Source of the DNA: Chloroflexia bacterium
GTDB lineage: Bacteria > Chloroflexota > Chloroflexia > QHBQ01 > JADMIH01
Reading direction: 5' to 3'
Assembly (NCBI GenBank): GCA_036386675.1
Contig: DASVVE010000016.1
Span: 122,561 to 186,560 of the forward strand
DNA: 64,000 bases
Positions 2,979 through 46,640 of the stretch are shown piece by piece. Every line of letters starts with the position of its first letter. The first letter of the stretch is position 1. Both the position numbers and the translations under genes were made by a program. The notes under the pieces were generated by a model, which was given only the letters and a program-made list of their open reading frames with translations, ran no database searches and was not told the origin of the DNA.

Positions 2979-2996
2979 CCAAAGGAGACTTACTAG

Positions 2997-4194: not shown

Positions 4195-4201
4195 CTGCCC
4201 T

Positions 4202-5044: not shown

Positions 5045-5054
5045 GTGGTTTGAG

Positions 5055-5453
5055 TTATTGGGCTTGCGCCCTGGAGGGCATGCGGTGGGTGGAGGCGGCT
5101 TCTAGCAGGTGGCGCACGGCTGGGCGGGTGAGGTCTTCAGGCGTCGTTATCTTCAGGTGTCGGAACAGCTTGCCGGTGCCTTGCAAAAGTCCGTCGGGGT
5201 CGGGTAGCTCGCTCCCGTAGTTGAAGCCGAGGTCTATGTGGTTCTTGTGCACGCTGATGTAGCAGAAGTGCTCGGTCATCTTCTTCGGCCCCACGCCGTA
5301 GCCCGCGATCCGCTGGCGGGGCCAGGGCACCTCAACGATGTCCGGCATTACGTCTCTGATCAACTCCCTCGCTTGCAACGCAAGGTCTCGCACCTTCGGG
5401 GTGGCAGAGGCCAGGATTTCGTTGAAGCCCTCATCGGGTGATGCGTAGCTCAT
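5055..5453 (-). CDS. DUF1801 (YdhG-like) domain protein
   Basis: 132 aa with overall similarity to DUF1801 proteins. This is a family-level guess. Confidence 0.45.
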   Translation of the reverse strand: MSYASPDEGFNEILASATPKVRDLALQARELIRDVMPDIVEVPWPRQRIAGYGVGPKKMTEHFCYISVHKNHIDLGFNYGSELPDPDGLLQGTGKLFRHLKITTPEDLTRPAVRHLLEAASTHRMPSRAQAQ

Positions 5454-5576
5454 GTTTGTTTCCTCCTTAGCCCACGTTTGGCATGAACTTGTGTCCCATT
5501 ATAGGGGCTACTTGCCACTAACGACTACGAAATGCTACCTGCACCCAGTAAAGTAGGGAGCCTGAACTACAGGCAC

Positions 5577-5742
5577 CACACTCCCCCGTGTCATCCTGAG
5601 CGCAGCGAAGGATCTCAAATGCTCCTCTTGTCGTTGCGGTGAACCCACAGCACCCTACCTTTTTTGCTCAAAGTTCAACAGCCTCCCTACTCAGCTTCTT
5701 GAGATCCTTCGCTGCGCTCAGGATGACACGGGGGAGTGTGGT
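5577..5742. repeat. MITE-like palindrome: 43-bp perfect terminal inverted repeats (ccacactcccccgtgtcatcctgagcgcagcgaaggatctcaa) around an ~80-bp spacer
   Basis: The left arm 5577-5619 is the exact reverse complement of the right arm 5700-5742. Located immediately upstream of the wecB-like gene. Confidence 0.85.
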
Positions 5743-13018: not shown

Positions 13019-14282
13019 AGTGCTGGTAATAAGATACGAGGGCCAACCTTTCCTGGTGAGGATGTCGAAGCTGCTGAGGACGATGCTCGACTCCGGCTGG
13101 CAGGTGGACGTGCTGATTCCCAGGGGCGGGTTGGGTGCGACAAACGTCTCTAAGGAAATGGGGCGCGACCTCACCGGGGAAGTAACATTGCTGGAGTTTC
13201 CCCATGAACTTCCCCGCACGATACCAGAGAGGTTGCTATATCGTCTCTCCGGGACGGGCTTCTTCGGCAGCAGCGAGTTCCGGCGCTACCTGACCGGTCT
13301 CCTTTCGAGGCAGAAGTACGACCTTATCTGGGCCAAGGATACGCCTATACTCCCGGCTGTCTTTCATGCGATAAAGAGGTCCGGCCACCCTCCGGTGCGG
13401 GTCGTGTGCGACATGTACGAGAATATCACCGAGCAGGTCTATGATACGTTCGTACGATACGGCAAGCTGTACGAACGGCTGTTGACGCAGGCTTCGCTGC
13501 TGATTAGCCGCCTGCGCCGGGCTGAGAGGCTATACCTTGCACGCTGCGACCATATATTCGTTGTGGTGGATACGGCCAAGACTTTTCTTGTGAAGCGCTA
13601 CGGTCTCGAGCCGTCCCGCATAACGGTAGTGCACAACGTCGAGATTCTGTCGGACTTCGACCGGATCGAGCCTGGACAGCCACTGCTTGATACGGACGTG
13701 CCGCTCATTTCCTTCGTCGGCGGTTTCGGCCCCCATCGTGGCATAGACACGCTGCTGGAGGCTGTGGCGCTGCTGGTTTCAAGGGGTGAGACGCGCTTCC
13801 GGCTGGCCCTGGTTGGTGCTTCCGGCTCGGAGCTTGCTCGCCTGGAAAGCGTCTGCCGGGAGCGCGGCCTGCAAGAGGTAGTTGTGCTGCGGGGGTATCT
13901 CTCACACCGCGAGGCGATGCGCTGGATGAAGCAGTCGAATATCGGTGTCATTCCGCACGTGAACACGCCGCAGATCAGAACTACCATACCAAATAAGTTG
14001 TTCCAGTATATGGCTGCCGGGGTACCTTGTATCGTGTCCGATGTGGGGCCGCTCGGCAGGATCGTGCGTCAGACAGGCTGTGGTCTTACCTTCCCGGCGG
14101 GGAACGCGCCGGAGCTAGCGGCTAGAATCGCCGATTTGCTGGCACACCCGGAGCAGATGCTGGAGCTTGGCAGGAACGGCAGAGCCAGTGTCGAGCGCCA
14201 ATACAGGTGGGAGATAGAAGGGCAAGAGTATGCTCGTTACCTCCTGGGCGTCATGAGTGCTATCCAGGACGTAAGCAAATAG
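13011..14282 (+). CDS. Glycosyltransferase family 4 (GT-B)
   Basis: C-terminal EX7E-type region (FVGGFGPHRGIDTLLEAV...IPNKLFQYMAAGVPCIVSD). The ATG at 13011 overlaps the flippase stop, so the ORF-track start at 12915 is too early. Confidence 0.8.
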   Translation: MPRVLVIRYEGQPFLVRMSKLLRTMLDSGWQVDVLIPRGGLGATNVSKEMGRDLTGEVTLLEFPHELPRTIPERLLYRLSGTGFFGSSEFRRYLTGLLSRQKYDLIWAKDTPILPAVFHAIKRSGHPPVRVVCDMYENITEQVYDTFVRYGKLYERLLTQASLLISRLRRAERLYLARCDHIFVVVDTAKTFLVKRYGLEPSRITVVHNVEILSDFDRIEPGQPLLDTDVPLISFVGGFGPHRGIDTLLEAVALLVSRGETRFRLALVGASGSELARLESVCRERGLQEVVVLRGYLSHREAMRWMKQSNIGVIPHVNTPQIRTTIPNKLFQYMAAGVPCIVSDVGPLGRIVRQTGCGLTFPAGNAPELAARIADLLAHPEQMLELGRNGRASVERQYRWEIEGQEYARYLLGVMSAIQDVSK

Positions 14283-24912: not shown

Positions 24913-25036
24913 GTTGCCCTTTCTGAGGGAGAATTGCGAAACTATAACATAGCGAACGTGGGAGCAACAAGCCAGTTCCTGAGCCAGGGAAGGTAGGAGC
25001 CAATGCGGTGACACACCAATTGTGACGCTAATATCC

Positions 25037-27979: not shown

Positions 27980-28180
27980 AACTCGACTACCTCCACTATG
28001 GGAAAGTTCGCTACCATCAGGTGCCCGACATCCCTGCATGTGTCTCACAACGTCCTATATTGTACACAGAACTCATCAAATTTCCATGCAGGGTGAGAGG
28101 TATCCGTAGATGCTGCTAAGGACACGTATCGTGGCGGCATGTGTCCTTAGCAGCATCGCACATGTCGGATGTAATTAAGG

Positions 28181-28343
28181 ATGCAACTACAGGTCAAAAC
28201 TTGCCCATGTTTGCAGTGAAACTTTGCAACTGCCTGTGGAGAAAGTCTGCAACTACCCTCAATTTAGCAAACAAAGTATGCAACTGGCCTCGTACTCCTG
28301 TGCTGCGACGTCGGCCACAGAGTCGCAAATCTCTGCAACTAGC
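28181..28343. promoter_or_regulatory. Array of five direct repeats TGCAACT(A/G)(C/G)C in the upstream region of the large membrane-protein gene
   Basis: Copies at 28181, 28224, 28247, 28278 and 28333. A further copy plus its inverted partner at 28381/28431 form a hairpin. Confidence 0.35.
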
Positions 28344-28380
28344 CTAACCCTCTCTCCTCACAAACTGGTGTAGCTAAACA

Positions 28381-28441
28381 TTGCAACCAGCCTACAGGAC
28401 TCTGAGTTGTTTCTCAAGTCAGAGTCCTGTAGGCTGGTTGC
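28381..28441. terminator. 24-bp perfect inverted repeat hairpin downstream of the lipoprotein gene
   Basis: tgcaaccagcctacaggactctga-gttgtttctcaag-tcagagtcctgtaggctggttgca. Confidence 0.45.
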
Positions 28442-28526
28442 ACTGGGTGTCCGTCCCGAATTGTGGAGCAAAGCTAGACCGATACCACGTGGGGAGCGAG
28501 TAGGCTGTTACGTGCTAGAGATCCAA

Positions 28527-29651
28527 TTATTTATCTGCGCAACTCGCAGTTCCCCAGGATTCGAGTGATAGACTGGTTGGCGGGAACGACTCGTATGCAG
28601 CAACCCTCGTCCAAGCAAAGCCTGAGATATGATACCTTAGACCTTTACCCTGACCTGTCGCTCTGTCCCAGAGGGGTACAGGGACTATGAAACCACTCGT
28701 CTGTAAGAAGTCAAGGGTGCTCCTGGTCTCCGGACTTGTGCCGATGTTCTCGATTGTCTGTAGCCAGTCTCCTACAGATGCCCTATGGTCGTTGGCATCC
28801 TCTGAGTTGGCGTAATTTACGTTCTCGCCGGGCGTTGGTAAGGCAGAAGCTCTACCCGGACTGCCTGTGCCGGAACTGAATGCTAACCATCTGAAGCCCC
28901 GGGCACCCGCAGTATCTAGACTCACCTTGTTCTTGTCGTGGCGACTTTTCGATCCTTTGAAGCTGTCGGCGTGAACTGCCAGAGGATACACCTTACAGGG
29001 GGTGTTGGTCTCCCACTGTCTTGTTTGTAGGTTGTAAGCAATCATAGAGGTGGAACCGTCTTTCTGGGGAGCGATCAGAATAACGCGAGGCAAGTCTATG
29101 TATGCGATGTCCAGGGCGCCTTGCTTCTGTGGCGAGGTATACAGGATAACGTCACTTAGGTCCCGGCCTTCGAGTGTGGTCGTAAAAACCTGAACCGCAC
29201 CCTGTAGCGGATCATCACTTAGCACTCCGGCGTTCAGATACGCATATTCGTTACCCAACTTACCTCCCCAACAGGAAGTCACATGAAAAGTCCTGCTACC
29301 CCCTCCGCACGTTCCCAAACCGGGTTCAGGCGTGTCTTGCGGCTCAGGAGTGGCCGGAGGAGGTAGTGTCGGCATGGGTGCCTTGTTCTCAGCGACCCTG
29401 GTCTTCGCTGCGTCTCGCTTCGCTTGATCCATATCCAGGAAGGCTTGTTTTGTAGCCTCTACTTCCGCACGCGTCGGCGTATGAGTCTGGGAGGCGGCGA
29501 CTGTCTGATTCGGCACGCTGAGGGCATTGCCGGAGTCGTTCTGCGTGTCGTCGTTGTTACCGTTACATCCTGCGATGAGCAACAGGCTCACTAGTAGAGC
29601 AGGTCCCAGTACCCTTATGGCTGTGGTCCGTCTCTTGGTACTCACTTTCAC
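28527..29651 (-). CDS. Lipoprotein (lipobox LIAGC), unknown function
   Basis: N-terminus MKVSTKRRTTAIRVLGPALLVSLLLIAGCNG with a Pro/Thr-rich linker. 374 aa. Confidence 0.65.
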   Translation of the reverse strand: MKVSTKRRTTAIRVLGPALLVSLLLIAGCNGNNDDTQNDSGNALSVPNQTVAASQTHTPTRAEVEATKQAFLDMDQAKRDAAKTRVAENKAPMPTLPPPATPEPQDTPEPGLGTCGGGSRTFHVTSCWGGKLGNEYAYLNAGVLSDDPLQGAVQVFTTTLEGRDLSDVILYTSPQKQGALDIAYIDLPRVILIAPQKDGSTSMIAYNLQTRQWETNTPCKVYPLAVHADSFKGSKSRHDKNKVSLDTAGARGFRWLAFSSGTGSPGRASALPTPGENVNYANSEDANDHRASVGDWLQTIENIGTSPETRSTLDFLQTSGFIVPVPLWDRATGQGKGLRYHISGFAWTRVAAYESFPPTSLSLESWGTASCADK

Positions 29652-29740
29652 TTTGTTCCTCCTGACCCTGGCTTGCTACAAAAGTATGCCCAACCGTACA
29701 CAGTTGATCGCTGGAGTGGTACAAACCTGAGCATACAGGC

Positions 29741-32700
29741 TTATGGATAAATAATGTCGGTTACTCCATATTGCAAAATTGACTGAGGTTCAAGTAAAGG
29801 GTTAGGCACCTTCTGGGGTGCAGTAGGAGATCCAGTTAGGGGAGCATGAGGCGAGCTAAGCATATCTGTCAATGCTTGCCATGCTCGATGAGGTGGTAAG
29901 TAGGGACAGCCAGCACCTCCTGCCGCGCCGCTAGTGCAGGAGTAGGGTTGCCAATTACCCGTGCAGTCGGCCCCGTCCTGGGTCGTACATTTGTCATTAA
30001 ACCGCTCGTTGAAGCGTGCCGGTGTACTTGTCATACGTGCGGCACATGTGCTGTTTACGGCACAGCCTGACATGGCTCCTAAGAAACGCATATTGCTGCC
30101 CTGGTGAACCTTGGCATACCATTTGACGTTGTACCATTCCCACATGTAGGGTGTGAGGTATATTTGTGGCAGCGGCCAGGCATTAACCAAACCATATGAC
30201 ACATAGTACACACGATTCAGTGCCTCGCTTACTAGAGGACTTTGCGCCCATGTTGTCGGGCTCCCGCCTCGGGGGCAGCCCTCACAACTACCAAAGTTGA
30301 ACGCCGCCACATCTGGAATTGAGGTAAAGCCTTCTGCCCAGTACTTGGTCCCAGACTTCGCCGAGTCGTTGATCCTGTATCTACTCCATCGATCTGGATC
30401 GGCTGTCACGTTGTCAGCATTCACATTGGGGCAGGGACCTCGTTCACCTAGCACGGTATCCCTACAGTCCAGGTCAGTGGATGCATAGTACTCAAAGTCA
30501 TAACCACCTGCAAAGCTGACAGCACCACTCAAATATGGGTCTGACGCAGCTTCCTGACGCAGAGCACTTACCATTCCGGCCCACGCCGCTCCATGGCTGT
30601 AATTCAGATCCATATTATCCTGCCAGATATGTGGGCCATCAGCCAGGTACGCGGTATTGCTAACGCCTAGAACGATCGTCAGGTCAGCCACCGTGTTAGG
30701 AGCCTGGCAGCCCTGTCCAAGCGTATAGCCTAGGGCGAACTCTCGCGCTATAGCCTGGACTTCAGCCAACGAAACTAACGTACGAACAACTATGAGTCGT
30801 GCTCCATATTCGACACCTGGTGGGGAACTTACGCTTTGGATATATGGCCCTCCAAAATCCAGCACTACCAGACCTGTCTCGCCTCTTTGCCGCGCTTCAC
30901 ACCCCAAGAGCCGTGCATCGGCAGGATCGGCACTCTGTATGTAATAACTTGTGGTATGTTTTGGAGGTGTCGGTAAGGCAAAGCCCTGGGCTGAAGATAC
31001 CGCCCACTGACCTGTACCTGACTGTGCAGTAGCTACAATTTGATACATCCGGTATGCTGAATCTCCCGGCAGCGTAACTGTGTTCCATCCGCCTGTCAGC
31101 GTAACGGCAGATGTAATCGTTTGGGCGTCAGACATACCGCAGATACCCCATTGGTCGCAACTAACCTGATTTCCAGCTCTAATGTCAATTGTAGTAGCGT
31201 AGTTGCCTTCCTGGTATAGCCTGATAGTACCAACATTCGTAGGTGTTGTCAGGTCAACACGCCAGTTGTCACTTCGTGCCCCCCATATTGTAGCTTCGTT
31301 GCCATCCGTGGCGTTACCGGCCATGTATGCACAGCCACCGAAACATTCGGCACCATCCCAGGCGCGCTTGCCCAGGAACACGTCATCGGGAGGTGGAGGA
31401 GGCGGAGGAGTACCCATGATCCCTTGTATGGTGTGTACTCTCCAGCCGTCCTGTATCCCAATATGTGCTGTTGCTACAATGCTATACATACGGTACGCTG
31501 CATCTCCGGGCAGAGCAATCTCGTTCCACCCATTTACCACAGCCACATTGGCCTTTATTGTTCGCGGATCGCTCGTATCACAAATGCCCCAGCCGTCGCA
31601 CCCTACGACAGTGCCTGCGACTATGTCAACAGCCGTAGCATAGTTTCCGTCCTGGAAGAACGTTATCTTTACGATCGGCACTTGCTGCCCAACATCTACA
31701 CGCCAACTGTTGCTTCTGGCTCCCCAGTACGTGGTGCTGTTGTTGTCTACGGCATTTCCTGCCATGTTGGCACAGCCGCCAAAGCACTCGTTTCCGTCCC
31801 ACGCCGGCTTGCCTAGGAAGACGTCCTCCCCGGCCGCCGGGGTGGCCGGAGTGCTGGAAGGAGTAGCCGTGTTTGTTGATGTGGGTGTCGAGGTAGGTGT
31901 CGAAGTGGATGTAGATGTTGCTGTGAATGTTGGCGTGGGAGTAGCTCCAGGAACACCGTTACAGATGTAGGCATCCTGCACCTTGCTGCCCGTGTTATAG
32001 AGCGAACTGTCCATGTATAGAGGAGCGGACGGCGCGGTTACGGTGCTCGTGTACACAGCTACACCGTTGCGGTAGTAGCGCACTAGCCCCGAGCTACCCA
32101 CTCCAATAGCCAGCTCGTCACCTACGTCGTACAAGCTCACCGCTCCTTTAGTGGTACCGCTCTCTGCAACCGTCAAGCCACTGGTGCCCGGGTCTATATA
32201 GAAGGCGTAGTCCAGGTTCTGCCAGGTAACGTTGTTGGAGGGGTCATCGGAGAGGCCAAACATCAATATGTCCTGCGTCGAGGCCACCGTGGCGCGCACG
32301 TATCCTGTGCTGCCGGGCTGCAGGGCCGCACTAGATATGGCACCCGCGTTCCAGCCCGTACCTCCCGCCGTCTTCGCCAGGGTATTGCCTGTGGGGGTGG
32401 CATTCTGCCCGCCGGTCCACGTTACCGGCTGGCAGTTGCTCGTAGATATAGGTTCAGTGAGGCTGGCACCGCAAAGAGATGCATCCTGCACCTTGCTGCC
32501 CGAAGTGTAAAGGGAGCTATCTAGGAACAGTGGGTACTTGGGCGCTACCGTGCTGGTGTAGAGTAGCTCACCGTTCTTGTAGTAGCGGACGATCTGTGTA
32601 TCGTCCACGGCCACTCGCAACGTGTCCCCGGCATCGTACAGCCCATATCCTCCCCTGTTGGTCCCCTTCTCCACGATCTGTAATTTGCCCGCGTACGGGT

Positions 32701-34150
32701 CTATGTAGAAAGCATAATCGATGCTCTGCCACTGCACGTCAATATCGGAATTGGACAGGCCAAACATGAGGATGTCGCCGGACGAAGCCACTGTCATCTG
32801 AACATAGCCACGCCCTGACAGGATGCCCTTCCTGGAGGCACCTCCTGCGTTCCAGGCGCTGCCCCCGCTTACCTTTGTGATCGTATTCCCTGCGGCCGAG
32901 ACGTTGCGCTTACCCGTCCACGCCCCGTCCAGGCTGTCGCATGGCGACTGAGGCAAAGCCGGGTGCGCGCTCGCCCCACAAATCTGAGCATTCTGTACCT
33001 TACCACCCACATTCCAGATGGAGCTATCCATATAAAGGGGGTAAGTGGGTGCCGCTGTGCTGGTGTAGACGAGCTGGTTATTGAGATAGTATCGCACTAC
33101 CCCCGCTTGGTCTACCGCGATAGTTAGTTCATCTCCCGCATCATACATGCTCCACAAGGCTTTGGTGTTGCCCTTCTCCTGGACTGATAGCACGCCTACG
33201 CCCGGGTCTATATAGAAGGCGTAGTCCAGACTGGTCCAGTTTACGTCGCTGTCCTGGTGGGAGAGGCCAAACATGAGGGTATCGATGCCTGAAGCTATGG
33301 TGGCTCGCACGTACCCGCTGTTGCCGGACTGTATAGCCTGGCTGGAAGCAGCCCCGGCGTTCCAGCCGCTGCCCCCGGCCGTCTTCTGAACAGTGTTGCC
33401 GGTGGACATAGCGTTGCGGGTGTGGACCCACGTCACCGCCTCACAGGTGGAGGTAGGCAGCGGCGCGGGCGCACTGCCCCCGCAAATCTGCGCGTTCTGC
33501 ACCTTGCCGCCCGAGTTCCAGATGGAGCTATCCATGTACAAAGGAAAGGTCGGGGCTACCAGGCTGGTGTAAAGGAGGTTGCCATTGCGATAGTAGCGTA
33601 CTGAAGTACCCTCTACAGCTACTCGCAGTACATCTCCGGCCGCGTATGCGCCGTAGCTGGCGAGGCCAGCTCCACGCTCTATTATCGTGAGACCCCCCGA
33701 GACTGCCGGGTCTATGTAGAACGCGTAGTCAAGAGACTGCCAATGTGCATCTTTATCAATGCGAGACAGCCCGAACATGAGCGTATGGCTGGTTGAAGCC
33801 ACCGTCGCTTCAACATGCCCGCTGCTTCCCGATTGGATGCCTACACTGGAAGCGGCACCTGCATTCCAGGCGCTACCGCCCGCTGTTTTCTCAATCGTGT
33901 TGCCGGTAGCAACCACGTTCCGCTTGTGGACCCATGTTACTGCCTGGCAGTCTTCCGGTCCGCTCATGAGGGCTGCCGCCGACGCAACGTCAACACCTGG
34001 GAAGGGGGTGAGGGTGACCGACTGTAGTGAGAGGGATGAAAGGGTGAGAAACAGGATCACCATGAAGACGATGCGAAGATACCAATGGGAAGAGCGTGGG
34101 CGGAACATGATGTGGGGGCATCCCTTCGCGTGTGAACGCATGTAGAACAC
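29741..34150 (-). CDS. Giant secreted multidomain protein (1469 aa): 5x LamG/ConA-like repeats, 2x discoidin (F5/8 type C)-like domains, and a ~500-aa Cys-containing C-terminal domain
   Basis: Five ~150-aa repeats with TGNTxxKTAGGxxWNAGAxS...MFGLS...DYAFYIDP...GDxLxVAV...RYYxNGxLxYTS. PT/S-rich and poly-Pro linkers. AWDGxECFGGCAxMAGNAxDxNxxTxWGARS discoidin-like modules. The start is uncertain among three Met codons (34150, 34141, 34108). Confidence 0.7.
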   Translation of the reverse strand: MFYMRSHAKGCPHIMFRPRSSHWYLRIVFMVILFLTLSSLSLQSVTLTPFPGVDVASAAALMSGPEDCQAVTWVHKRNVVATGNTIEKTAGGSAWNAGAASSVGIQSGSSGHVEATVASTSHTLMFGLSRIDKDAHWQSLDYAFYIDPAVSGGLTIIERGAGLASYGAYAAGDVLRVAVEGTSVRYYRNGNLLYTSLVAPTFPLYMDSSIWNSGGKVQNAQICGGSAPAPLPTSTCEAVTWVHTRNAMSTGNTVQKTAGGSGWNAGAASSQAIQSGNSGYVRATIASGIDTLMFGLSHQDSDVNWTSLDYAFYIDPGVGVLSVQEKGNTKALWSMYDAGDELTIAVDQAGVVRYYLNNQLVYTSTAAPTYPLYMDSSIWNVGGKVQNAQICGASAHPALPQSPCDSLDGAWTGKRNVSAAGNTITKVSGGSAWNAGGASRKGILSGRGYVQMTVASSGDILMFGLSNSDIDVQWQSIDYAFYIDPYAGKLQIVEKGTNRGGYGLYDAGDTLRVAVDDTQIVRYYKNGELLYTSTVAPKYPLFLDSSLYTSGSKVQDASLCGASLTEPISTSNCQPVTWTGGQNATPTGNTLAKTAGGTGWNAGAISSAALQPGSTGYVRATVASTQDILMFGLSDDPSNNVTWQNLDYAFYIDPGTSGLTVAESGTTKGAVSLYDVGDELAIGVGSSGLVRYYRNGVAVYTSTVTAPSAPLYMDSSLYNTGSKVQDAYICNGVPGATPTPTFTATSTSTSTPTSTPTSTNTATPSSTPATPAAGEDVFLGKPAWDGNECFGGCANMAGNAVDNNSTTYWGARSNSWRVDVGQQVPIVKITFFQDGNYATAVDIVAGTVVGCDGWGICDTSDPRTIKANVAVVNGWNEIALPGDAAYRMYSIVATAHIGIQDGWRVHTIQGIMGTPPPPPPPDDVFLGKRAWDGAECFGGCAYMAGNATDGNEATIWGARSDNWRVDLTTPTNVGTIRLYQEGNYATTIDIRAGNQVSCDQWGICGMSDAQTITSAVTLTGGWNTVTLPGDSAYRMYQIVATAQSGTGQWAVSSAQGFALPTPPKHTTSYYIQSADPADARLLGCEARQRGETGLVVLDFGGPYIQSVSSPPGVEYGARLIVVRTLVSLAEVQAIAREFALGYTLGQGCQAPNTVADLTIVLGVSNTAYLADGPHIWQDNMDLNYSHGAAWAGMVSALRQEAASDPYLSGAVSFAGGYDFEYYASTDLDCRDTVLGERGPCPNVNADNVTADPDRWSRYRINDSAKSGTKYWAEGFTSIPDVAAFNFGSCEGCPRGGSPTTWAQSPLVSEALNRVYYVSYGLVNAWPLPQIYLTPYMWEWYNVKWYAKVHQGSNMRFLGAMSGCAVNSTCAARMTSTPARFNERFNDKCTTQDGADCTGNWQPYSCTSGAAGGAGCPYLPPHRAWQALTDMLSSPHAPLTGSPTAPQKVPNPLLEPQSILQYGVTDIIYP

Positions 34151-34865
34151 CTGTCTATAGAGGATACTGCCTCAAGACCAGGTGCTCGCCTTTATTAGGT
34201 TGTAACAGCTTGCAGTAGGAATAGAGTTCCTACCGGAGTCCAACAGAACAGCAAACGTAGGGCGTGACAACGACGATAAATCTCCTGACTATAGAGGTCA
34301 AGAGACTGAACGGCCTTGGTAAACACGTAAGGTCGCTGCACACGCTACACGGCGATACAGAGCGCGCCCGTGTGCAATCAACGCGAAGTGACGGTTTGCG
34401 GTTTTTGGTGAGCTTAGTTTACGAAAGTCGACCTTTACAAACAAGCTAATTGACTACGTAGTTTAGCGTAACTATGGTCTTAAGCACGTGGCGATGGAAA
34501 TGGAGAGCGACCAATTACGGAATGTAGTGAGAAATGGCGGATTGGCAGACATAGTAACATGAATTACAAGCCACAACCCCACTCCCTGGTAGGTCAGCCC
34601 ACTCTATCGGAGATAGGGTGCGCGCAACGTTATTGGTGTTAATCATGATTGCTAAGATACGGGCGTCACACCTAAATCCTCCATCCATATGTGTTGCACT
34701 TGACTGGTTACCAACCTGTGACTACACACATCATGACGCGGCTGCATGTTAGGCCCGACACAAAGAACATGTAGCGGTGAAGATCAGCATTGTTGTAATG
34801 GACCACCCGCCACGGGTATAGATGGAAAAGAAAGGACATATGCGATATGACTAAAGTCGATACTA

Positions 34866-35766
34866 AGAGCGCCTTTCAAAACCTGGCCCGTGACTTGCGG
34901 TGGTAGTGGGCACTATGAGCAAGCCACTAGTACCAGACGAACTATGGGAGATTGTAGAGCCACTGTTGCCAGCTGAGCCACCTAAGCCAAAGGGAGGTCG
35001 TCCTCGCGGGCCGGGCCGAGCAGCCCTTGCAGGGCTCATCTTCGTGCTGCGAAGGGGCCTACCCTGGGAGATGCTACCCCAAGAGATGGGCTGTGGGAGT
35101 GGAGTAACCTGCTGGCGCAGATTGCGTGAGTGGCAGAAGAAGGGAGTGTGGCGCAAGCTGCACAGGGCGTTGCTCAACCGCCTGGGAGAAGCAGACAAGA
35201 TAGATTGGTCACGCGCCAGCCTGGACTCAGATACTGTTCCAGCTAAGGGTGTAAAAAGGGGGACCCGAAAGCTACGGCTGTTGGGCCGAACCCCACAGAT
35301 AAGGGCAACACCCAGAGGGTGCCCGGCACGAAGCGCCATGTTGTGGTCGAGCGGCAAGGCATACCGCTGGCCGTGAAACTCACCGGTGCCAACACCCACG
35401 ACTCGAAGGTGTTCGAGGAGATGGTGGACAGCATAGAACCTATCAAACGTCCACTCGGCAAGCCTGGCCGACCTCGCAAGCGCCCGGACAAGTTGCACGC
35501 TGACAAGGCGTATGACATATCCAGGTGCCGCAAGGCTCTTGCGAAGAGGGGCATCAAGTGTCGCATAGCGCGTAAAGGAGTAGAGAGCAGCCAGAAGCTG
35601 GACAGGCACAGGTGGGTGGTTGAGCGCACCCTCTCCTGGCTCGACCGTAAACGTCGGCTCACCATCCGCTACGAGCGTCGTGACGATATTCACCTGGCGT
35701 TCCTGCATCTTGGTTGTGTCCTCATCTGCCTCAATCACCTGTTATGATGGTTTTGAAGGGCGCTCT
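34866..35766 (+). mobile_element. IS5-family (IS427-group-like) insertion sequence, ~900 bp, with 18-bp imperfect terminal IRs
   Basis: IRL agagcgcctttcaaaacc (34866-34883) matches IRR ggttttgaagggcgctct (35749-35766) with one mismatch. Encloses orfA/orfB. Confidence 0.85.
34900..35747 (+). CDS. IS5/IS427-type transposase orfAB, produced by a -1 programmed frameshift at A AAA AGG (35253-35259)
   Basis: orfA 34900-35376 (frame 1) and orfB 35319-35747 (frame 3). The -1 fusion reads ...GVKKGDPKATAVGPNPTDKGNTQRVPGTKRHVVVERQGIPLAVKLTGANTHDS, the typical IS5 DDE transposase context. Confidence 0.8.
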
Positions 35767-38937: not shown

Positions 38938-39252
38938 TTACAGAGCGATTTCCTTGATCGAGAGCCTGGTGAGGCCCTGGCGGTGACCCGTCTTGCGGCG
39001 GATGCGCTTCTTCGGCTTGTACTTGAACACAACGAGCTTGGGGCCTTTGGCCTGCCCGATGACGGTGGCGATCACACGAGCGCCCGCGACTGTGGGTGTG
39101 CCAACTTGCACGCCGTTGTCGCCCCCGCCCACCATGAGCACCTCGCCCAGCTCTACCTGGCTGCCCTTCTCGGCATCAAGCAGTTCTACCTCTATCGTAT
39201 CACCGGGAGCTACCCTGAACTGGTGGCCTCCGGCCTTTATGATTGCGTACAC
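38938..39252 (-). CDS. rplU: 50S ribosomal protein L21
   Basis: MYAIIKAGGHQFRVAPGDTIEVE...KYKPKKRIRRKTGHRQ. Confidence 0.95.
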   Translation of the reverse strand: MYAIIKAGGHQFRVAPGDTIEVELLDAEKGSQVELGEVLMVGGGDNGVQVGTPTVAGARVIATVIGQAKGPKLVVFKYKPKKRIRRKTGHRQGLTRLSIKEIAL

Positions 39253-39488
39253 CTAATTTCCTCCGCTACTATTTGGGTCACAGCCTCTAATTATATCCGC
39301 GTTTGGGCGTGCTGTCAAGCGTGAAACTCGAGGCGAGAGCGCAGCTTAGGGGTCGCGGATTCTCTGCATGTGCAGTACGTACGGTATGCAGCCGGAAGCA
39401 GCGGAAGCGCAAGTAGTACAAATACGAGGAGGACTTGCACCGGCTCATGCTCTGCATGTTCAGGAAGCTGGCTGAAGGGGCAAGACAG

Positions 39489-40088
39489 CTAAGGACTAGC
39501 GTGGAGAGTGTTGAGGATCAGAGAAGCATTGCGCGCCCAAGTCTCACGATAGAAGGCGAGGATTAAGAGGTCCATGTAATGGCCGTTCCAAAAGACGTGC
39601 TCCCGCAATCGCCCTTCTTCAACGAAGAACCGCCCAATGCCGCTCTTGAAGCCCTGGTAGCTCTCTTCAGTGCTCTCCATATAGATCTTTCTGAAGGGCC
39701 AGGCGTTGAACGCATAGTTGAAGCCCAGCGCTATGCCCTCGGCAATCAGCCCGGCCCCCTGCACTTCGGGCACGCCAATCGCTGAAAGGTAGGCGAAGCC
39801 ATCCCGAAAGTTGGGCGAAGTAATTGCGATTAGTCCCAAAGGTTGCCCGGAATCGACGCCTTCGACAATAAACTGGGCAAGGACGCTCTCCCATAGTGAC
39901 CCGGCGATCTTGTCTGGGCTAGGCGTGGCCCCGGCGAAACGGACACGCCCGCCGGACAACGGCGAGGTCATAAGGTCATAAAGAAAGAAGCTGTCCTGGT
40001 CTGAAATGACCCGCAGGCGGATGTGCCGCGTGCGCATCAGCGGGAAGGGACGTAGTGGCTGTTGTCCGGTAGCGGAGTCGTCAGACAA
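39489..40088 (-). CDS. GNAT-family acetyltransferase (Acetyltransf_3/RimL-like)
   Basis: TRHIRLRVISDQD...LYDLM N-terminus typical of PF13302. Last gene of the MauE-like operon. Confidence 0.7.
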   Translation of the reverse strand: MSDDSATGQQPLRPFPLMRTRHIRLRVISDQDSFFLYDLMTSPLSGGRVRFAGATPSPDKIAGSLWESVLAQFIVEGVDSGQPLGLIAITSPNFRDGFAYLSAIGVPEVQGAGLIAEGIALGFNYAFNAWPFRKIYMESTEESYQGFKSGIGRFFVEEGRLREHVFWNGHYMDLLILAFYRETWARNASLILNTLHASP

Positions 40089-40812
40089 GACTTATGGCCC
40101 CGGCCAGAATGAACAGGCTGGCAGCTACCGAGACGAAGCTGTCAGAGCCGCGAATGAAGAGGCTGGCGGACTGCAAGCGGTTGGAGGCGACCAGTTGCAT
40201 CATAAGCGGCACGGCTCGCCCGAGTCCAAACCCCAGGGCCACAAGCAGAGCATTTGCAAGGGTGAATTGTGCAAGGAGTAGTGCGAGCAGCAGAATATAG
40301 GGTGCGGCTGAGGGCACGTAGGTGCGCAGTCCCGTTCCTAGTTCCACTCCGAACCGGTAGGCACCGCGAACGAGGCTCCCACCGAACACCTCGGCAGGGA
40401 TCAGGCGCCGCGACTCAGGTAAAGAGATGATGCTCGACAGCGGGCCATCCTTGGACAACAAGACAAAGACCGCTGCTATGCCAAGCATGGCAGCCCGCAC
40501 CTCAGCACTGAGCGGTTCGGCAAAACCGCTCAGTACCCACGCGCAAAATCCTGTGAGCAAGGCTCCATGCGAAGTCCCCACCAGGTATGCGGCGACGATC
40601 TTATAGTCGAACAGGGACCGATGTCTCTTGGGCGGCAGCAACACGGCTGCGCTGTTAAGACTTCAAATCGACCCCGCGAGCGACAACCCCGCAGCGAAGC
40701 CTATGCTCAGTGTAATGAGTGTTTCGGTCCGCACGAGCGCGGTCGCACCGATAAGCCCGGCGAGGATCACCCAGATCCACGAAACTGGTCTTGTCAAGGC
40801 ACTTATGGACAT
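40081..40812 (-). CDS. Integral membrane protein interrupted by a single in-frame TGA (plus 40663-40665). Possibly a CcdA/DsbD-like thiol-disulfide transporter; either a pseudogene or recoded.
   Basis: ORFs 40663-40851 and 40081-40644 are in the same frame, separated only by tga: ...FAAGLSLAGSI*SLNSAAVLLPPKRH.... ~8 TM in total. The resemblance to the CcdA motif AGLxSFxSPCVLPLLP is loose. Confidence 0.35.
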
Positions 40813-41447
40813 AGCGTTAGCTGGTCGTCGCAGGACACGAGGCCCTGGCATATAGTAGGCTCCCAGTAATCGTTACCGTCAAACTTCTTGTAGCCATCGT
40901 GGCACCGGAATACCGCCGACTGCTGGCAGTTCCCACAAGCGCCCACCTTCCACTTCCAGGCATCTTTGCCGTTGCAAACGTCAGGCTCTCTGTCTTTGTA
41001 CTGAATACTACCTCGCAGGCCGGTGAAATGCCAGTTGTACGATGGATTGTTGACTGGATCGGCAGCCTGCTCGGCGCACGTAGCACAAAACCAGGGGTCC
41101 ATATGGTCTGGAGCGAAGCCAAAGCAAGCTTCGTTGCAGGTACCGCCATATGGAGGATAGCCTGCACAATCGTAGTAGGTGGTGTAACTTGCACTGGCTG
41201 CCCGTTCGAGCGTCCCGATATTCGCTAATTCGCCGAGCGCTCCGAGAGCGCCTCCTCTTGCGGCCGTTGCCGTCTGCAAGCGCTGCACAAGTTGCATTCC
41301 GAGAGGTACCCCAATCAAGCTCAAGATGTTGCCCTTGCGCATTGGATGGTCCGGGTATGCTTCCACAACGTCCGAGTCGGTGCTGGGCCGCCGCCCCAAC
41401 CTTTCCGCTCCTTCGATAGTAGGAATGTCCTGTATGTCAAAGTTCAT
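40803..41447 (-). CDS. 12-Cys protein with an N-terminal ~90-aa non-hydrophobic region and a ~125-aa C-terminal Cys/Trp-rich domain
   Basis: Strong RBS aggagg 6 nt upstream of ATG 41447. C-terminal domain YYDCAGYPPYGGTCNEACFG...DPWFCATCAEQ...VCNGKDAWKWKVGACGNCQQ...RCHDGY...YWEPTICQGLVSCDDQLTLCP. No N-terminal signal peptide. Confidence 0.55.
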   Translation of the reverse strand: MNFDIQDIPTIEGAERLGRRPSTDSDVVEAYPDHPMRKGNILSLIGVPLGMQLVQRLQTATAARGGALGALGELANIGTLERAASASYTTYYDCAGYPPYGGTCNEACFGFAPDHMDPWFCATCAEQAADPVNNPSYNWHFTGLRGSIQYKDREPDVCNGKDAWKWKVGACGNCQQSAVFRCHDGYKKFDGNDYWEPTICQGLVSCDDQLTLCP

Positions 41448-41494
41448 GGTGGTCCTCCTGTCATTTGATCCCCACTAGCTAGATGGAATATCGA

Positions 41495-42013
41495 CTATGC
41501 AACCGCCAGCAGTTTATTAAGCGAATCCAACGAATTGATTGGCGTTGCTTTGAGGACTCTGCCATCTGCGCCTGCTACGAGTGCAAAAGGGGTGACCCGG
41601 ATCCCAAGCTCGGTACTGATTTGCGGCCCGGCGTGCAGGACGGTGGCATTTGAGGGAATGTCCGGGGCAGGCGAGGGCAACTGATCGACCCAGGCAACGG
41701 CCAGGGGGGCGTTCGACGGCAGATGCAGATGCTGTAGCTCGTTCAATACGCGCGCGCATGAAGTGCAATTCGAGGAGAGGAATACAAGCACCCGTGGTAC
41801 TACAGGCGACTCCCCGAGGAGGTCCTGTAATCGTCTACCGAGCAAGTTAGCATAGGGTGTGTTTTCCTTGGAAACGGACGCGGCCCGTTCGAGTCGCTGT
41901 AGCCGCGAGTGCAGGTTCCCGATTACCAGCATGAGCAAGAGCACCGCAACCCAGGTGACAAAGAGAGCGGCGAAAGCGAAGCTTGACCGGGAGTCCAGCA
42001 AAGTATCAAACAT
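41495..42013 (-). CDS. Membrane-anchored thioredoxin-like protein (TlpA/ResA/MauD-like), CxxC = CTSC
   Basis: N-terminal TM FAFAALFVTWVAVLLLMLVIG, then a redoxin-fold region VLVFLSSNCTSCARVL. Confidence 0.7.
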   Translation of the reverse strand: MFDTLLDSRSSFAFAALFVTWVAVLLLMLVIGNLHSRLQRLERAASVSKENTPYANLLGRRLQDLLGESPVVPRVLVFLSSNCTSCARVLNELQHLHLPSNAPLAVAWVDQLPSPAPDIPSNATVLHAGPQISTELGIRVTPFALVAGADGRVLKATPINSLDSLNKLLAVA

Positions 42014-42581
42014 TGTTGCTACCTTCTGTTTGGCGTAGCCCCGCCGAGAAGGCGGGGAGCATGAAGACGGCTGTGGTTAGTGTCATACCCCAGGCGAGGG
42101 GCAATGCGGCAGCGAAACCTAATAGCTCATATCCGGCATCCAGCGAGCGGCCAAATCCGAGTCCGGTAACTACCAGACCCAGCACCGACATCAACAGAAG
42201 CGCGGAAGCTGGAACGATGGAGGCCGGTGTTAGGGGGCCTGCGAAGGGCGAGCAGCCACAGGAGGTAATACCCGCCGGCCTTCTGAGCAGCAGACGGATA
42301 TATAACACGAACGCAGCCCCGGCTACAGTGGAGAGCGCGAAGAGAGGTAATGCCACTGGCGCAAACTCTGAATTTAGCAGCACCAACACGAACGCACCGC
42401 CTGCTACAGTTTCCAGGACTGTAACCAGGATTGAAGCCGGGGTCGCAAGCCGGGTTGGAACGATGCCATGAGAGCGCACAAGGCTTCTAAAGTGAGCGAA
42501 GCCCAGCAGATGGCCCATGCCGCCGATCAAAAGTGTCGTAGCAACATATCCGAGACTAAGGTAGTAGGCGAAAGTCATCAA
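42006..42581 (-). CDS. MauE-like (methylamine-utilisation protein MauE / DoxX-like) membrane protein with a CGC motif
   Basis: 191 aa, 4-5 TM, with ...LETVAGGAFVLVLL... and GITSCGCSPFAGP resembling the MauE xDCGCFG signature. Confidence 0.55.
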   Translation of the reverse strand: MMTFAYYLSLGYVATTLLIGGMGHLLGFAHFRSLVRSHGIVPTRLATPASILVTVLETVAGGAFVLVLLNSEFAPVALPLFALSTVAGAAFVLYIRLLLRRPAGITSCGCSPFAGPLTPASIVPASALLLMSVLGLVVTGLGFGRSLDAGYELLGFAAALPLAWGMTLTTAVFMLPAFSAGLRQTEGSNNV

Positions 42582-43285
42582 CGGTTACTTCTCGGCGACC
42601 ATTCCACCCGCAAGCTCTGCGTCATAGCCAGCATCTCTCGTGAGTCGGCTTCAGTGAGCGGATCAATCCTCACGACAGATGTTGGACTCACGAATATCAA
42701 CGCATTGCTGCCCTCTCGAATACGAAAGAGCTCTCCAGTGTTGGTCGCGAGTCCTCTCATCCTGGGGATGCCTTGAAGTGTACTGTGGATTGCAGGCTGG
42801 ATGTTGAGCACGCCCAATCCGGGGATTTCTTTGATCACTTGAGGCTCTCGCGGCTGCGGTGTAATAGGGGAGTCGATAGCGACCCCTGCCGAGCGTTCGC
42901 TAAACTGGAGGGTATCGAAGACCTCAATGAGGCGCTCTCGCTCCGTGCCGACCATCGAGGTAGTGAGGCAGCCGCTCTTGCCTTCCCAGGCACCAACGGT
43001 CAAGTCCCTGAAGCCGCCTGTCGCCGTTGCCATCCTCACCTCGGCGACCCGGAGCTTCCCGCCTTTGAGGTCGTAGTCCTCTACCGCCTTACGTGTAATT
43101 GCGTTATTTCGGCGTACTGCCTTCTCGACGGAGGCGGTATAACCAGCAGGATATACCGCGAATGGGTGCGCACGCATAAGCGAGGGAACGATTGCCCAGC
43201 CGGTCGTGCTGATTCGCGTGGACAGATCAGCGTCCGCTTCAACCGTAATTATGGACCCGTCGATTGCTAGATGTTCCACCCTCAT
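42578..43285 (-). CDS. Hypothetical soluble protein (235 aa), first gene of the MauE-like operon
   Basis: No recognisable motif. Overlaps the MauE-like start by 4 nt; a ~490-bp AT-rich region lies upstream. Confidence 0.5.
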   Translation of the reverse strand: MRVEHLAIDGSIITVEADADLSTRISTTGWAIVPSLMRAHPFAVYPAGYTASVEKAVRRNNAITRKAVEDYDLKGGKLRVAEVRMATATGGFRDLTVGAWEGKSGCLTTSMVGTERERLIEVFDTLQFSERSAGVAIDSPITPQPREPQVIKEIPGLGVLNIQPAIHSTLQGIPRMRGLATNTGELFRIREGSNALIFVSPTSVVRIDPLTEADSREMLAMTQSLRVEWSPRSNR

Positions 43286-43779
43286 AAGACACCTCCTCGC
43301 TCAATAGTTCAGCTTTAAGGAACATATTGCGGTCTATTCGAGGCTGAATAGACCTTGTTGTCAGGGGACTCCCAGGCCGCCGGGCCGGCTAAGAAGGATA
43401 CGCTAGAGGTATGGCGGGTGCGGAAGCTATGATTCGAGTATGGACCAGTCGAATGGAGAGCTTTACCGGTTGTTAGATTTGCAAGTTGCCTGGGGACGTT
43501 ATAGCAGTCTAGCTTTGAAGCATAGATTCTCGTGCAAAGTAGTTAGATCTTGTTAGACCAGTAGATTGTACGACAATCAGATAGCTAACATTCTACATCC
43601 AGTCAACTCCTATGTCAATAGGTTTCACAAGAAACGACGAAGCAGTAGAGTGAGCTAGGCCTTGACGTTTGGACCAGGGAAGCAAATTTCACCGTTCCCT
43701 CTATTACCGGGTGCTCATAAGTGGGGCTGTGCCGTGGCTGGTTTGTTGCTCATGGACACTAGTTTTCACCGAACGTGCT

Positions 43780-45116: not shown

Positions 45117-46640
45117 CTAGTTGCCTGTAAAGGTGTCTTCGAACAGCAGCCAGCGGTCGGCGTGGTAGAAATTGGGCGACTGCCTTACCATGCCCCGCAA
45201 TTCAACGCTGCCTGAGGAGGCGTACAGGACGTATATCTGCCGCGCTGCCAGGTTGGGGTAGACCATCAAGCCGCCGTCGAAGTAGGCCACCACGCCGCCC
45301 GCCTGCGTGCCTGGGGTGTGAGTCTGCACGTCGGCGGGTCCGGTGGCCCAGCCCAGCCTCTCCCGCAGGTTGCGTTCCTTCCATACCTTGAGCATCGTGC
45401 CGGATGGCGCATGGAGGCCTGGGGGTACGTCGGTGGGCGCGGCGGGTATGTTCGCCTCGTACTGCTCGACCCAGTTGAACGTTTGCACGCGCCCATCCTC
45501 GAACAGTGCGTATATGTCATGCACCTCAAGTTGCCGGTAAGCGTCCCGGACCGTGACACTGAGCATTTGCCCATGCTCGAAAAACTGCCGGGCAACTGTC
45601 GTAAACTTCTCCGGCTGGGTCAGGCAGTTCAGGCGTACTTTCACTACCTCGTTCTCGCTGTAGACCTTGCCGAAGCCCCGTGTCGGCCCGTTGGGTGGGC
45701 ATGCGTTCAGCAGCACGCCTGGCTTGCCCGCGCCCTTGTAGCGCCAGTCGTAGTAGTGCTGGCCCACGTTGCCCATCTGCACCTTGAAGCCTTCGGGCGC
45801 GTCGGGCACGTAGGTGAGCACCCGCCGCTCGTACGCCTGCAACAGGGCCAGCGTCTGCTTGCCCGCGATTCCTATACGGGTCCAGTAGGCTTCGCTAACC
45901 GGGTAGCCTGTTACGTAAAAGTACGGCTCGCTCAACCGGGCGGACTTCTGCCGGCCGTTCTCTATCACCGGCCCTTCGGCGTTGAGGAACTGCCAGAACA
46001 CGTCGGGGATGTTGTGTTTGGTGGCAGGCTCGTAGTACGCATACTTGACCCCGAACTGCTCCGGCTGCCCTACCTCTATCGAGGCGGTCACGGAGTTCGG
46101 GTAGCCATCGCCCGCTAGCACCTGGGTGACTGTCGCCCCCACTGCCGCCTGTGCTTCCAACTCTAGCACGTACCCGAGGCTGGCGTAAGTGATCGCTCCC
46201 GTATCACCCGCCACCGGGATCTTCGCGGGGTAGCGGAAGGAGAACTTGCTGTTCCCGGTTTGCATGTTGCCGCTGACAAGCTCTCTTGTCAGCAAGCCGT
46301 TGGTGACGTAGAAGGGGCTGCCTGGGTCCGCGTTGGGGTCGTTGATCTCCATGCGGCTCTTGTCAAAGTACTGCACCTTGCGCTGCCCGCCCGGCCCTTC
46401 GGCGTAGTCTTCCAGCAGCTGGCCGGTGTTGGGCTGCGGCCCCCAGTACCAGCTTCGCTTTACAGCGCCGGTGGCTACCAGGGAATCGGTGCGGTTCCAC
46501 ACTCTCTCGAAAGCAGGGTCGGCAAAGGCGCGTGCCTGTCCCTGGCCAGCTTGTGCAGTCGAGTCAGCGGGCGTGGCGTTCAACAAGATGGGTGCAAGCA
46601 GGGACAGAGTGGTCAGGGCTAGAGGCTGCTGGGTCTTCAC
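45117..46640 (-). CDS. Secreted protein of unknown function (paralog 1)
   Basis: Signal peptide MKTQQPLALTTLSLLAPILLNA. Shares the FADPAFERVW...RSWYWGPQPNTGQ...YFDKSRMEINxP...FYVTNGLLTRELVSGNMQTGNSKF core with the next gene. Confidence 0.6.
   Translation of the reverse strand: MKTQQPLALTTLSLLAPILLNATPADSTAQAGQGQARAFADPAFERVWNRTDSLVATGAVKRSWYWGPQPNTGQLLEDYAEGPGGQRKVQYFDKSRMEINDPNADPGSPFYVTNGLLTRELVSGNMQTGNSKFSFRYPAKIPVAGDTGAITYASLGYVLELEAQAAVGATVTQVLAGDGYPNSVTASIEVGQPEQFGVKYAYYEPATKHNIPDVFWQFLNAEGPVIENGRQKSARLSEPYFYVTGYPVSEAYWTRIGIAGKQTLALLQAYERRVLTYVPDAPEGFKVQMGNVGQHYYDWRYKGAGKPGVLLNACPPNGPTRGFGKVYSENEVVKVRLNCLTQPEKFTTVARQFFEHGQMLSVTVRDAYRQLEVHDIYALFEDGRVQTFNWVEQYEANIPAAPTDVPPGLHAPSGTMLKVWKERNLRERLGWATGPADVQTHTPGTQAGGVVAYFDGGLMVYPNLAARQIYVLYASSGSVELRGMVRQSPNFYHADRWLLFEDTFTGN

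Follow-up and report, generated by a model that had tools for sequence, protein, structure and literature searches.

What is made by six overlapping bacterial genes of which one, for a membrane protein, is interrupted by a single in-frame TGA? The question is raised by positions 39489-43285 of a 64,000-nucleotide (nt) stretch of a Chloroflexia bacterium (GenBank assembly GCA_036386675.1, contig DASVVE010000016.1, positions 122,561 to 186,560 of the forward strand; hereafter the window), where six minus-strand open reading frames (ORFs), g1 to g6, overlap or abut. A preliminary description had taken them for a candidate operon devoted to the disulfide maturation of a protein with 12 Cys residues, g4, and had listed the TGA in g5 as a curiosity. 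Our results show that the six genes are a real conserved operon, probably spread horizontally as one unit, and that the TGA is the most informative feature of the cassette. From the conservation around it, the codon is very probably decoded as selenocysteine (Sec), which would make g5 the founding member of a new family of membrane selenoproteins. We also consider it moderately probable that the operon produces an extracytoplasmic 12-Cys protein of new fold together with the machinery, the membrane selenoprotein included, that handles this protein and folds it oxidatively. The features on which the argument rests are:

42578-43285, minus strand: g1, 235 amino acids (aa), predicted soluble and cytoplasmic, with a probable Mog1/PsbP/DUF1795-like fold (Eag-chaperone-like)
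42006-42578, minus strand: g2, MauE-family membrane protein with C108-G-C110
41495-42013, minus strand: g3, thioredoxin-like protein with an N-terminal membrane anchor, C83-T-S-C86 and cis-Pro P142
40803-41447, minus strand: g4, 214 aa, with the 12-Cys domain at its C-terminus
40806-41186, minus strand: 12-Cys domain of g4, residues about 88-214
40081-40812, minus strand: g5, polytopic membrane protein of 243 codons with an in-frame TGA at codon 50
40663-40665, minus strand: in-frame TGA, codon 50 of g5, very probably read as Sec and kept at the same codon in 30/30 loci
40635-40650, minus strand: hairpin GCAGC-CGUGUU-GCUGC, resembling a Sec insertion sequence (SECIS) and beginning 12 nt after the UGA
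39489-40088, minus strand: g6, GNAT-fold protein of 199 aa, the last gene of the cassette

A conserved six-gene operon

All six ORFs exist as first described, and their junctions are tight. The likely start of g2 is an ATG at 42578, whose overlap with the g1 stop reads TGATG; g3 and g2 share 8 nt, ATGTTTGA; an AGGAGG stands 7 nt on the 5' side of the g4 ATG; the ATG of g5 lies within ATGTCCATAA, overlapping the g4 stop; and g6 overlaps g5 in TTGTCTGA. The g4 protein is identical in three independent assemblies of a Chloroflexia metagenome-assembled genome and has 182 full-length homologues of 50-73% identity, and a genome scan yielded 32 loci. In about 20 of these (L004-L023), belonging to at least four phyla, g1-g2-g3-g4-g5-g6 stand in identical order, and we regard the unit as conserved and not as a product of chance because the same six families recur in the same order in ~20 genomes of four phyla. 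The hosts of the colinear cassette are soil bacteria of the Chloroflexia, several Acidobacteriota families, the Planctomycetota and, within the Actinomycetota, the Pseudonocardiaceae and Solirubrobacteraceae; a search for the same gene set in other phyla, as had been proposed, thus recovered it in three, Acidobacteriota, Planctomycetota and Actinomycetota. Diverged cassettes occur in the Acidimicrobiales, Microthrixaceae, Iamiaceae, and the cultured Actinomadura fulvescens.

When the flanking ORFs were compared all against all, the six cassette families were the only ones kept across loci. The invariant core consists of g1, g3, g4, and g5; by family hidden Markov models (HMMs), g2 was found in 25 loci, g3 in 31, and g6 in 21. 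Almost all versions of the cassette begin with g1 (in Actinomadura, L027, it comes after g5), and g6 is the most conserved cassette protein, with 56-78% identity across the phyla of the main clade. No plasmid was found to carry g4.

The in-frame TGA of g5

Gene callers split g5 into ORFs of 62 and 187 aa, which lie in one frame with the TGA alone between them. Across the 30 loci the TGA is part of the best-conserved stretch of the protein, ...G-L-S-L-S-G-S-[IVM]-TGA-[ST]-[LRF]-N-S-A..., and the invariant positions of g5 are S44, L45, S48, U50, N53, S54, LP-x-x-RRQIP, RFGxELGTGxRTY, and GFGxGR, with no second conserved Cys. In the 20 main-clade loci the Ser-Leu-Asn codons that follow the TGA vary in each of their third positions and never in a first one, one Ser-to-Thr change being the sole other variation in them; as they precede the GTG taken for a start by gene callers, 18 nt after the TGA, and yet vary at third positions, these codons are translated in frame. 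TGA is also the ordinary stop of g1, g2, and g5 itself, so that no reassignment of the code is involved. The protein would have about seven transmembrane (TM) segments, its lone Sec lying in the second within the small, polar motif SLSGS-I-U-SLNS; by the positive-inside rule, the KRHR loop after TM2 would be cytoplasmic and Sec50 would sit in the inner half of TM2.

If the TGA were instead a genuine stop, g5 would be a pseudogene or would encode two small membrane proteins, one of 49-62 aa and one of 187 aa, the latter starting at the GTG, perhaps by termination-reinitiation. Every gene caller annotates either both ORFs (62 and 187 aa) or only that of 187 aa, the GTG is close at hand, and the window encodes no Sec machinery. 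However, 30 loci of four phyla share one relation of the frames and one spacing of 18 nt, the spacer contains no Shine-Dalgarno sequence, and the three codons after the TGA vary in the manner of coding sequence while the next three, which belong to the hairpin, are invariant at the nucleotide level. The part of g5 before the TGA has just 18-23 codons in the Pseudonocardiaceae and Solirubrobacteraceae, which makes an independent gene implausible. Given, moreover, that the strongest residue conservation of g5 straddles the TGA, that some hosts have selC, selD, selA, and selB in linkage with the cassette and that a Cys variant exists, we hold this explanation to be highly improbable.

The hairpin is formed by the codons AGC GCA GCC GTG YTG CTG C, which are nucleotide-invariant in the 20 main-clade loci and give GCAGC-CGUGYU-GCUGC, whereas the neighboring codons change freely at synonymous sites. 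The hairpin AGCGCAGCCGTGYTGCTGC is 100% paired and belongs to the minimum free energy fold, and one compensatory change, C-G to U-A, is present in L010. In the distant clades a different hairpin with GGU-type loops occupies +28 to +45 from the UGA; it is likewise 100% paired and shows two compensatory changes. The start of the loop lies 17 nt from the UGA in the main clade and ~32 nt from it in the distant clades; in models of the bacterial SECIS element, the stem-loop has its apical loop some 16-37 nt past the UGA.

The presence of the Sec machinery was judged at the five loci where sel genes adjoin the cassette (L026 and L028-L031, from five Acidimicrobiales/Microthrixaceae species), and there selC-selD-selA-selB lie directly upstream on the same strand. 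Both ARAGORN and Rfam RF01852 (69-72 bits, cut-off 47) call the tRNA-Sec; selD matches TIGR00476 (378 bits), selA TIGR00474 (423 bits), and selB TIGR00475 (231 bits) in addition to a SelB winged-helix domain. In all five the sel block, which in L026 lies at 1357-5689, is followed by a gene for a trypsin-like peptidase. Another peptidase of this type has its gene upstream of selC, in divergent orientation. Table 1 of a 2016 survey lists Actinomadura atramentaria with an 'orphan SelD' and no known selenium-utilization trait, and places other actinomycetes (Amycolatopsis, Saccharomonospora, and Streptomyces ghanaensis) in the same class (PMC5029168).

A profile search of 5.8 billion proteins with g5 gave 249 matches, of which the best 120 are 154-196 aa long, are called from just after the TGA and are all unnamed or 'hypothetical', several Actinomadura and Spirillospora genomes included. 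An exhaustive HMMER search gave 1314 cluster representatives, and among the best 150 of these P0404 alone extends upstream, with Cys at the position of Sec (HSLSDSV-C-SRNSAHALTP). The names 'vacuolar-type H+-ATPase subunit I/STV1' or 'ATP synthase subunit c' that the Joint Genome Institute (JGI) attaches to P0130, P0157, and P0232 look like spurious low-complexity TM matches, with no Pfam support. With either Trp or Cys in place of the stop, g5 matched no family in Pfam or NCBIfam (June 2026 release), no Pfam family was common to 20 g5 members (a few had an isolated sub-threshold DUF match), and the g5 profile matched nothing among the PDB sequences. The DsbD_2 assignment that had been put forward for checking failed: no DsbD-like family was found among the 20 members, and a relation to DsbD_2/CcdA was rejected even with Cys for Sec and at E values up to 10. 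A relation to MauE was rejected as well, hhalign giving a probability of 0.2 against the MauE alignment.

We take g5 to be a selenoprotein because of the conserved TGA, the coding conservation on both its sides, the hairpin, the sel linkage, and the Cys homologue. Several observations weigh against this. The 64-kb window contains no tRNA genes and no selA, selB, or selD; the covariation is thin, with one compensatory change in the main clade and two in the distant ones; the register of the hairpin differs between these clades; an Rfam scan of the operon returned no SECIS or other RNA match; and the Cys form is a single case, a protein sequence only, from a 1.8-kb metagenome contig.

The family shares with known prokaryotic selenoproteins, above all those of membrane or thiol-relay type (the MerT-like, YedE/YeeE, SO_0444 transporter, and rhodanese/DsbD-like TsoB proteins; PMC13188914) an in-frame UGA within a conserved motif, a downstream hairpin, sel-gene linkage, and a probable redox role. 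It differs from them in that none of the 119 listed families has an NCBIfam or Pfam model that g5 matches, in that its lone Sec lies in a TM segment with no nearby Cys, in the motif GS-[IVM]-U-[ST]-x-N-[SG], in the rarity of Cys forms (1 of the 150 best representatives), and in its hosts, mainly soil Acidobacteriota, Chloroflexota, and Actinomycetota. The motif is absent from the 119 selenoprotein families of the May 2026 review (PMC13188914), and targeted literature searches on selenoproteins and MauE-type systems found no description of g5 or of the cassette.

The 12-Cys protein and its predicted partners

The count given for the presumed substrate in the preliminary description is exact: the last 125 residues of g4 contain all 12 of its Cys, from residue 94 on, and all 5 of its Trp. 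Its N-terminal ~30 residues are conserved (M-x-x-D-I-x-D-I-P-T-I-E-x-A-x-R-L-G-R-R, with the core D-I-P-T-I-E-x-A-G-R-L-G-R-R), and a variable disordered linker joins this motif to the Cys domain. In 118 g4 sequences all 12 Cys are invariant except C108 (kept in at least 90%), and they include two CxxC pairs, C121/C124 and C171/C174; also invariant are W139, H140, D162-A-W-K-W166, R181-C-H-D-G185, and K187. In the AlphaFold model, residues about 100-214 have predicted local distance difference test (pLDDT) values of 81-97 and the first 90 residues are predicted to be disordered. Searches of Pfam, NCBIfam, and PDB sequence profiles assigned g4 to no family and gave no ferredoxin, metallothionein, or Zn-ribbon match, and the predicted fold matched neither MauA nor any solved protein. 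The 12-Cys domain is thus predicted to be a new fold; a match to a well-known family, named beforehand as an outcome that would count against the maturation idea, did not turn up, and the stated unlikeness to MauA is borne out by sequence, predicted fold, and Cys spacing. The Microthrixaceae-type g4 (L026, 7780-8687) has an extra C-terminal domain of ~130 aa after '...ECDGRDPDAPIYHDPVGALV...', which looks beta-rich and which the window g4 does not have.

The statement that the N-terminus of g4 contains no signal peptide holds for the window and not for the family. In the window protein the first 95 aa include no hydrophobic segment (maximum 19-aa hydropathy 1.04) behind the strong ribosome-binding site, and the invariant 'GRR' is present without an h-region, short of the pattern of twin-arginine translocation (Tat) signals. 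In the distant homologues (L024-L027), by inspection, the N-terminal motif is followed by a Tat-type signal with h-region and AxA site (TRRGFLAG..., TRREVLG..., ERRSLLK..., GRRGVLR...) and then by the Cys domain. The main-clade proteins, that of the window included, have by this comparison lost the h-region. Tat signals before the Cys domain imply that the domain is extracytoplasmic in those lineages, which favors disulfides over cytoplasmic metal binding.

As to the accessory proteins, the MauE-like assignment of g2 is well founded, with 43.9 bits to PF07291 (cut-off 27) over residues 4-137. The CXC motif falls in the loop that follows the third TM helix and, together with H24, H38, P42, and E57, is invariant in 16 sequences, even in the distant L024 and L027; by these sequence criteria g2 is a MauE with a CXC active-site motif. 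MauE has been shown to replace DsbB in E. coli in a manner that requires the CXC motif, the catalytic site of a quinone-linked disulfide generator of DsbB type (bioRxiv 10.64898/2026.03.05.709764). The protein g3, previously called MauD/TlpA-like, has the expected anchor (one TM segment, residues 8-36), and its CxxC (C83, C86), P142 in a VTPF loop, and G151 are invariant in 20 sequences. The family name is less secure, as the window protein matches nothing at threshold in Pfam or NCBIfam, 7 of 20 members match Thioredoxin_2 or Thioredoxin_8 below threshold (E about 1e-3), and the family profile finds weak thioredoxin-like matches in the PDB (E 0.012-0.02). Judged by its motifs, g3 is a membrane-anchored, outward-facing, CxxC/cis-Pro thioredoxin-like protein.

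The AlphaFold model of g1 (pLDDT 93.6) is closest to the type VI secretion system (T6SS) effector chaperones PA0094 (EagT6) and SciW, the immunity proteins TplEi and Tsi3, and Mog1/PsbP-fold proteins, while searches of Pfam, NCBIfam, and PDB sequence profiles with g1 returned nothing. Eag proteins are cytoplasmic chaperones for the N-terminal hydrophobic regions of exported effectors, and the Eag-like fold suggests that g1 may keep hold of the targeting region at the N-terminus of g4. The GNAT assignment of g6 is upheld by the family profile, which matches SpeG structures at E 8.6e-13 over residues 21-183 and RimJ/RimL-type enzymes as well, and not by the window protein alone, which has no Pfam match; by profile, g6 clearly has a GNAT fold related to SpeG and RimJ/RimL. 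In its acyl-CoA loop G113 alone is invariant. SpeG orthology was rejected, as the window protein scores 24.6 bits against the NCBIfam SpeG model (cut-off 218).

A proposed pathway and related systems

We envisage that g2 and g3 introduce six disulfides into g4 outside the membrane, as is thought for MauE and MauD acting on MauA. The membrane selenoprotein g5 would be the redox relay partner of g3, its Sec forming transient Se-S bonds, and would either supply electrons for disulfide reshuffling or re-oxidize g3 where MauE is absent, thereby resembling CcdA/DsbD or DsbB in function and not in ancestry. On the cytoplasmic side, g1 may act as a chaperone for the conserved N-terminal targeting region of g4, which it would hold until export, and g6 may acylate a substrate. 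The preliminary description had proposed a dedicated MauE/MauD-dependent system for a different Cys-rich protein, which remains a reasonable reading, while the import of the in-frame TGA had been missed. Some findings sit uneasily with this pathway. The window g4 has no recognizable signal peptide of the kind that its export would call for; the five sel-linked loci have neither MauE nor GNAT, and the absence of MauE in particular counts against it; the 12 invariant Cys, the two CxxC pairs among them, could bind metals instead of forming disulfides; and the roles given to g1, g5, and g6 derive from fold resemblance, motifs, and gene linkage.

The closest parallel is the mau cluster, in which a MauE-family CXC protein, a thioredoxin-like CxxC protein, and a small 12-Cys protein are also encoded together. 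MauA carries a Tat-type leader, as do the distant g4 homologues. Unlike that cluster, the cassette has no MauB, MauG, amicyanin, or other mau gene (the absence of a MauB-like heavy chain had already been pointed out, and none is found among the neighbors), it adds g1, the Sec-containing membrane protein, and the GNAT protein, and it occurs in phyla that are not known for methylamine dehydrogenase; its g4 bears no relation to MauA, be it in sequence, in predicted fold, or in the spacing of Cys. With the generalist MauE (bioRxiv 10.64898/2026.03.05.709764), g2 shares passage of the Pfam threshold and the essential CGC, but it sits in a dedicated cassette beside a presumed substrate and is dispensable in the five sel-linked loci.

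Mining with decRiPPter has yielded candidate Streptomyces families of peptides made on the ribosome and modified after translation (RiPPs) with mauE/mauD and with no fewer than 8 Cys in the precursor (PMC7794033). These resemble the cassette in pairing MauE, with or without MauD, with a Cys-rich product outside the mau context, and they differ, in a comparison made by description only, in their short predicted Streptomyces precursors and in that no selenoprotein, g1, or g6 partner has been described for them. With CcdA/DsbD, g5 has in common a polytopic structure, a redox-active residue in a TM segment that has many small residues and prolines after it, and a gene beside that of a membrane-anchored thioredoxin-like partner. 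The analogy is functional only, since none of the 20 g5 members matches a DsbD or DsbD_2 HMM and one Sec stands in place of two Cys.

Alternative explanations for the 12-Cys protein

Three other accounts of g4 deserve attention. The protein may be a cofactor-bearing or cross-linked (RiPP-like) product comparable to MauA or QhpC, in which Trp, His, Asp, and Cys would be turned into a quinone or thioether; the cassette would then serve cofactor biogenesis, and the Sec of g5 and the GNAT protein g6 would be modifying enzymes and not folding helpers. The mau-cluster parallel (MauE, MauD-like protein, 12-Cys small protein, Tat-type leaders in distant homologues), the invariance of W139, H140, W164, W166, H183, and D184, the long conserved N-terminal 'leader' followed by a disordered linker, and the decRiPPter candidates with their mauE/mauD genes and precursors of at least 8 Cys (PMC7794033) all point that way. 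On the other hand, g4 resembles neither MauA nor any solved protein in sequence and fold, the conserved set contains no MauG-like heme enzyme, radical-SAM enzyme, flavoprotein, or protease, and a well-folded domain of 125 residues is large for a RiPP core, so that we judge this account unlikely. We think it distinctly unlikely that g4 is a cytoplasmic or membrane-associated handler of metal (Zn, Fe-S) or of selenium or another chalcogen, the cassette being devoted to trafficking or detoxification. The missing signal peptide of the window protein, the two CxxC pairs and invariant His, and a selenoprotein in the operon with sel genes adjoining would fit, all the more as Tat substrates are often loaded with cofactors before export; opposed to this stand the Tat signals with AxA sites before the same domain in distant homologues, the constant linkage of g4 to the outward-facing thioredoxin-like g3 and its usual linkage to the MauE disulfide generator, and the lack of any match to ferredoxin, metallothionein, or Zn-ribbon families.

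The same low degree of belief is what we grant to the idea that the cassette is a weapon, with g4 a secreted disulfide-rich toxin or bacteriocin-like protein, g1 an Eag-type chaperone or an immunity protein, and g6 a protective acetyltransferase. Its distribution is patchy, as in horizontal gene transfer, with 50-73% identity across phyla and unrelated flanks, and the best structural matches of g1 are T6SS effector chaperones and immunity proteins. Genes for DsbA/DsbB-like proteins within bacteriocin operons are a known arrangement; the sublancin operon sunA-sunT-bdbA-sunS-bdbB has an oxidative-folding pair of its own, BdbA/BdbB. Yet the conserved set includes no secretion-system or transporter gene, no plasmid match was obtained, and in the window the cassette lies among housekeeping genes, next to rplU-rpmA.

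Genomic surroundings

A possible promoter of the operon lies ~305 nt upstream of g1:

43590-43618, minus strand: candidate sigma-70-type promoter, TTGACA-17-TAGAAT, 11/12 in a consensus scan and a pattern match only

No upstream regulatory element common to the loci was found, and the promoter-like region is not conserved elsewhere. Within the ~300-nt leader downstream of it, ~50 nt upstream of the g1 start, the window has a perfect 10-bp inverted repeat, GGTCTATTCG-AGGC-TGAATAGACC on the plus strand (43331-43354), which is not conserved in the other loci. The neighbors of the cassette are a major facilitator superfamily (MFS) transporter gene and rplU/rpmA/rpmE/tdk. A perfect sigma-70 consensus, TTGACA-17-TATAAT, stands on the minus strand at 39290-39318, just upstream of rplU (38938-39252), and on this ground the ribosomal-protein genes downstream of the cassette probably have a promoter of their own. 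Among the neighboring proteins, one of 507 aa in the window (45117-46640), with a signal-like hydrophobic N-terminus, and one of 685 aa (L001, 2373-4430) have no Pfam family. In L002 a DDE transposase gene (DDE_Tnp_1, 13271-13699) follows ogg and is absent from the other two assemblies with an identical cassette; this is strain-level insertion sequence variation near the locus.

The lower G+C content ascribed to the cassette proved to be within noise (0.575 against a window mean of 0.594, standard deviation 0.030, with 21% of equal-sized windows lower), and the notion of an island based on it was rejected. A block at 25000-35000 has a G+C content of 0.49-0.55 against ~0.60 and may be an acquired island; it encodes a DUF6185 protein of 1003 aa (25037-28048), one of 374 aa with no family, and, at 29741-34150, one of 1469 aa that has an F5/8 type C (NedA-like) domain.

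Significance

Neither Pfam nor NCBIfam has a model for three of the families described here (g1, g4, and g5); one of them (g4) has a predicted new fold, and they travel together across phyla. The cassette adds a candidate family of membrane-embedded selenoproteins that is almost never replaced by Cys forms, and whose members gene callers and the NCBI annotation pipeline PGAP cut to a 'hypothetical protein' of ~170-190 aa, in cultured Actinomadura too. It also ties Sec to extracytoplasmic disulfide biochemistry (MauE and a thioredoxin-like protein), a link that is absent from the 2026 compilation of 119 families. The cultivable hosts Actinomadura fulvescens JCM 6833 and A. graeca make both Sec insertion and MauE/MauD-type roles outside methylamine metabolism approachable. 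A bolder proposal, which we advance tentatively and as one that may well fail, is that the g5 family consists of near-obligate membrane selenoproteins whose lone membrane-embedded Sec catalyzes thiol/disulfide (Se-S) exchange, within the membrane or across it, for a dedicated pathway of maturation and export of the 12-Cys protein. The Sec apparatus kept next to the cassette in some lineages would perhaps serve mainly the cassette, and, as a speculative extension and a further step, g4 itself might carry a Sec-dependent or Trp/Cys-derived cross-link or cofactor. If the proposal is true, the cassette would be the first natural selenium-dependent system for oxidative folding or translocation, and would give a reason for the persistence of the Sec trait in aerobic soil Acidobacteriota, Chloroflexota, Actinomycetota, and Planctomycetota.

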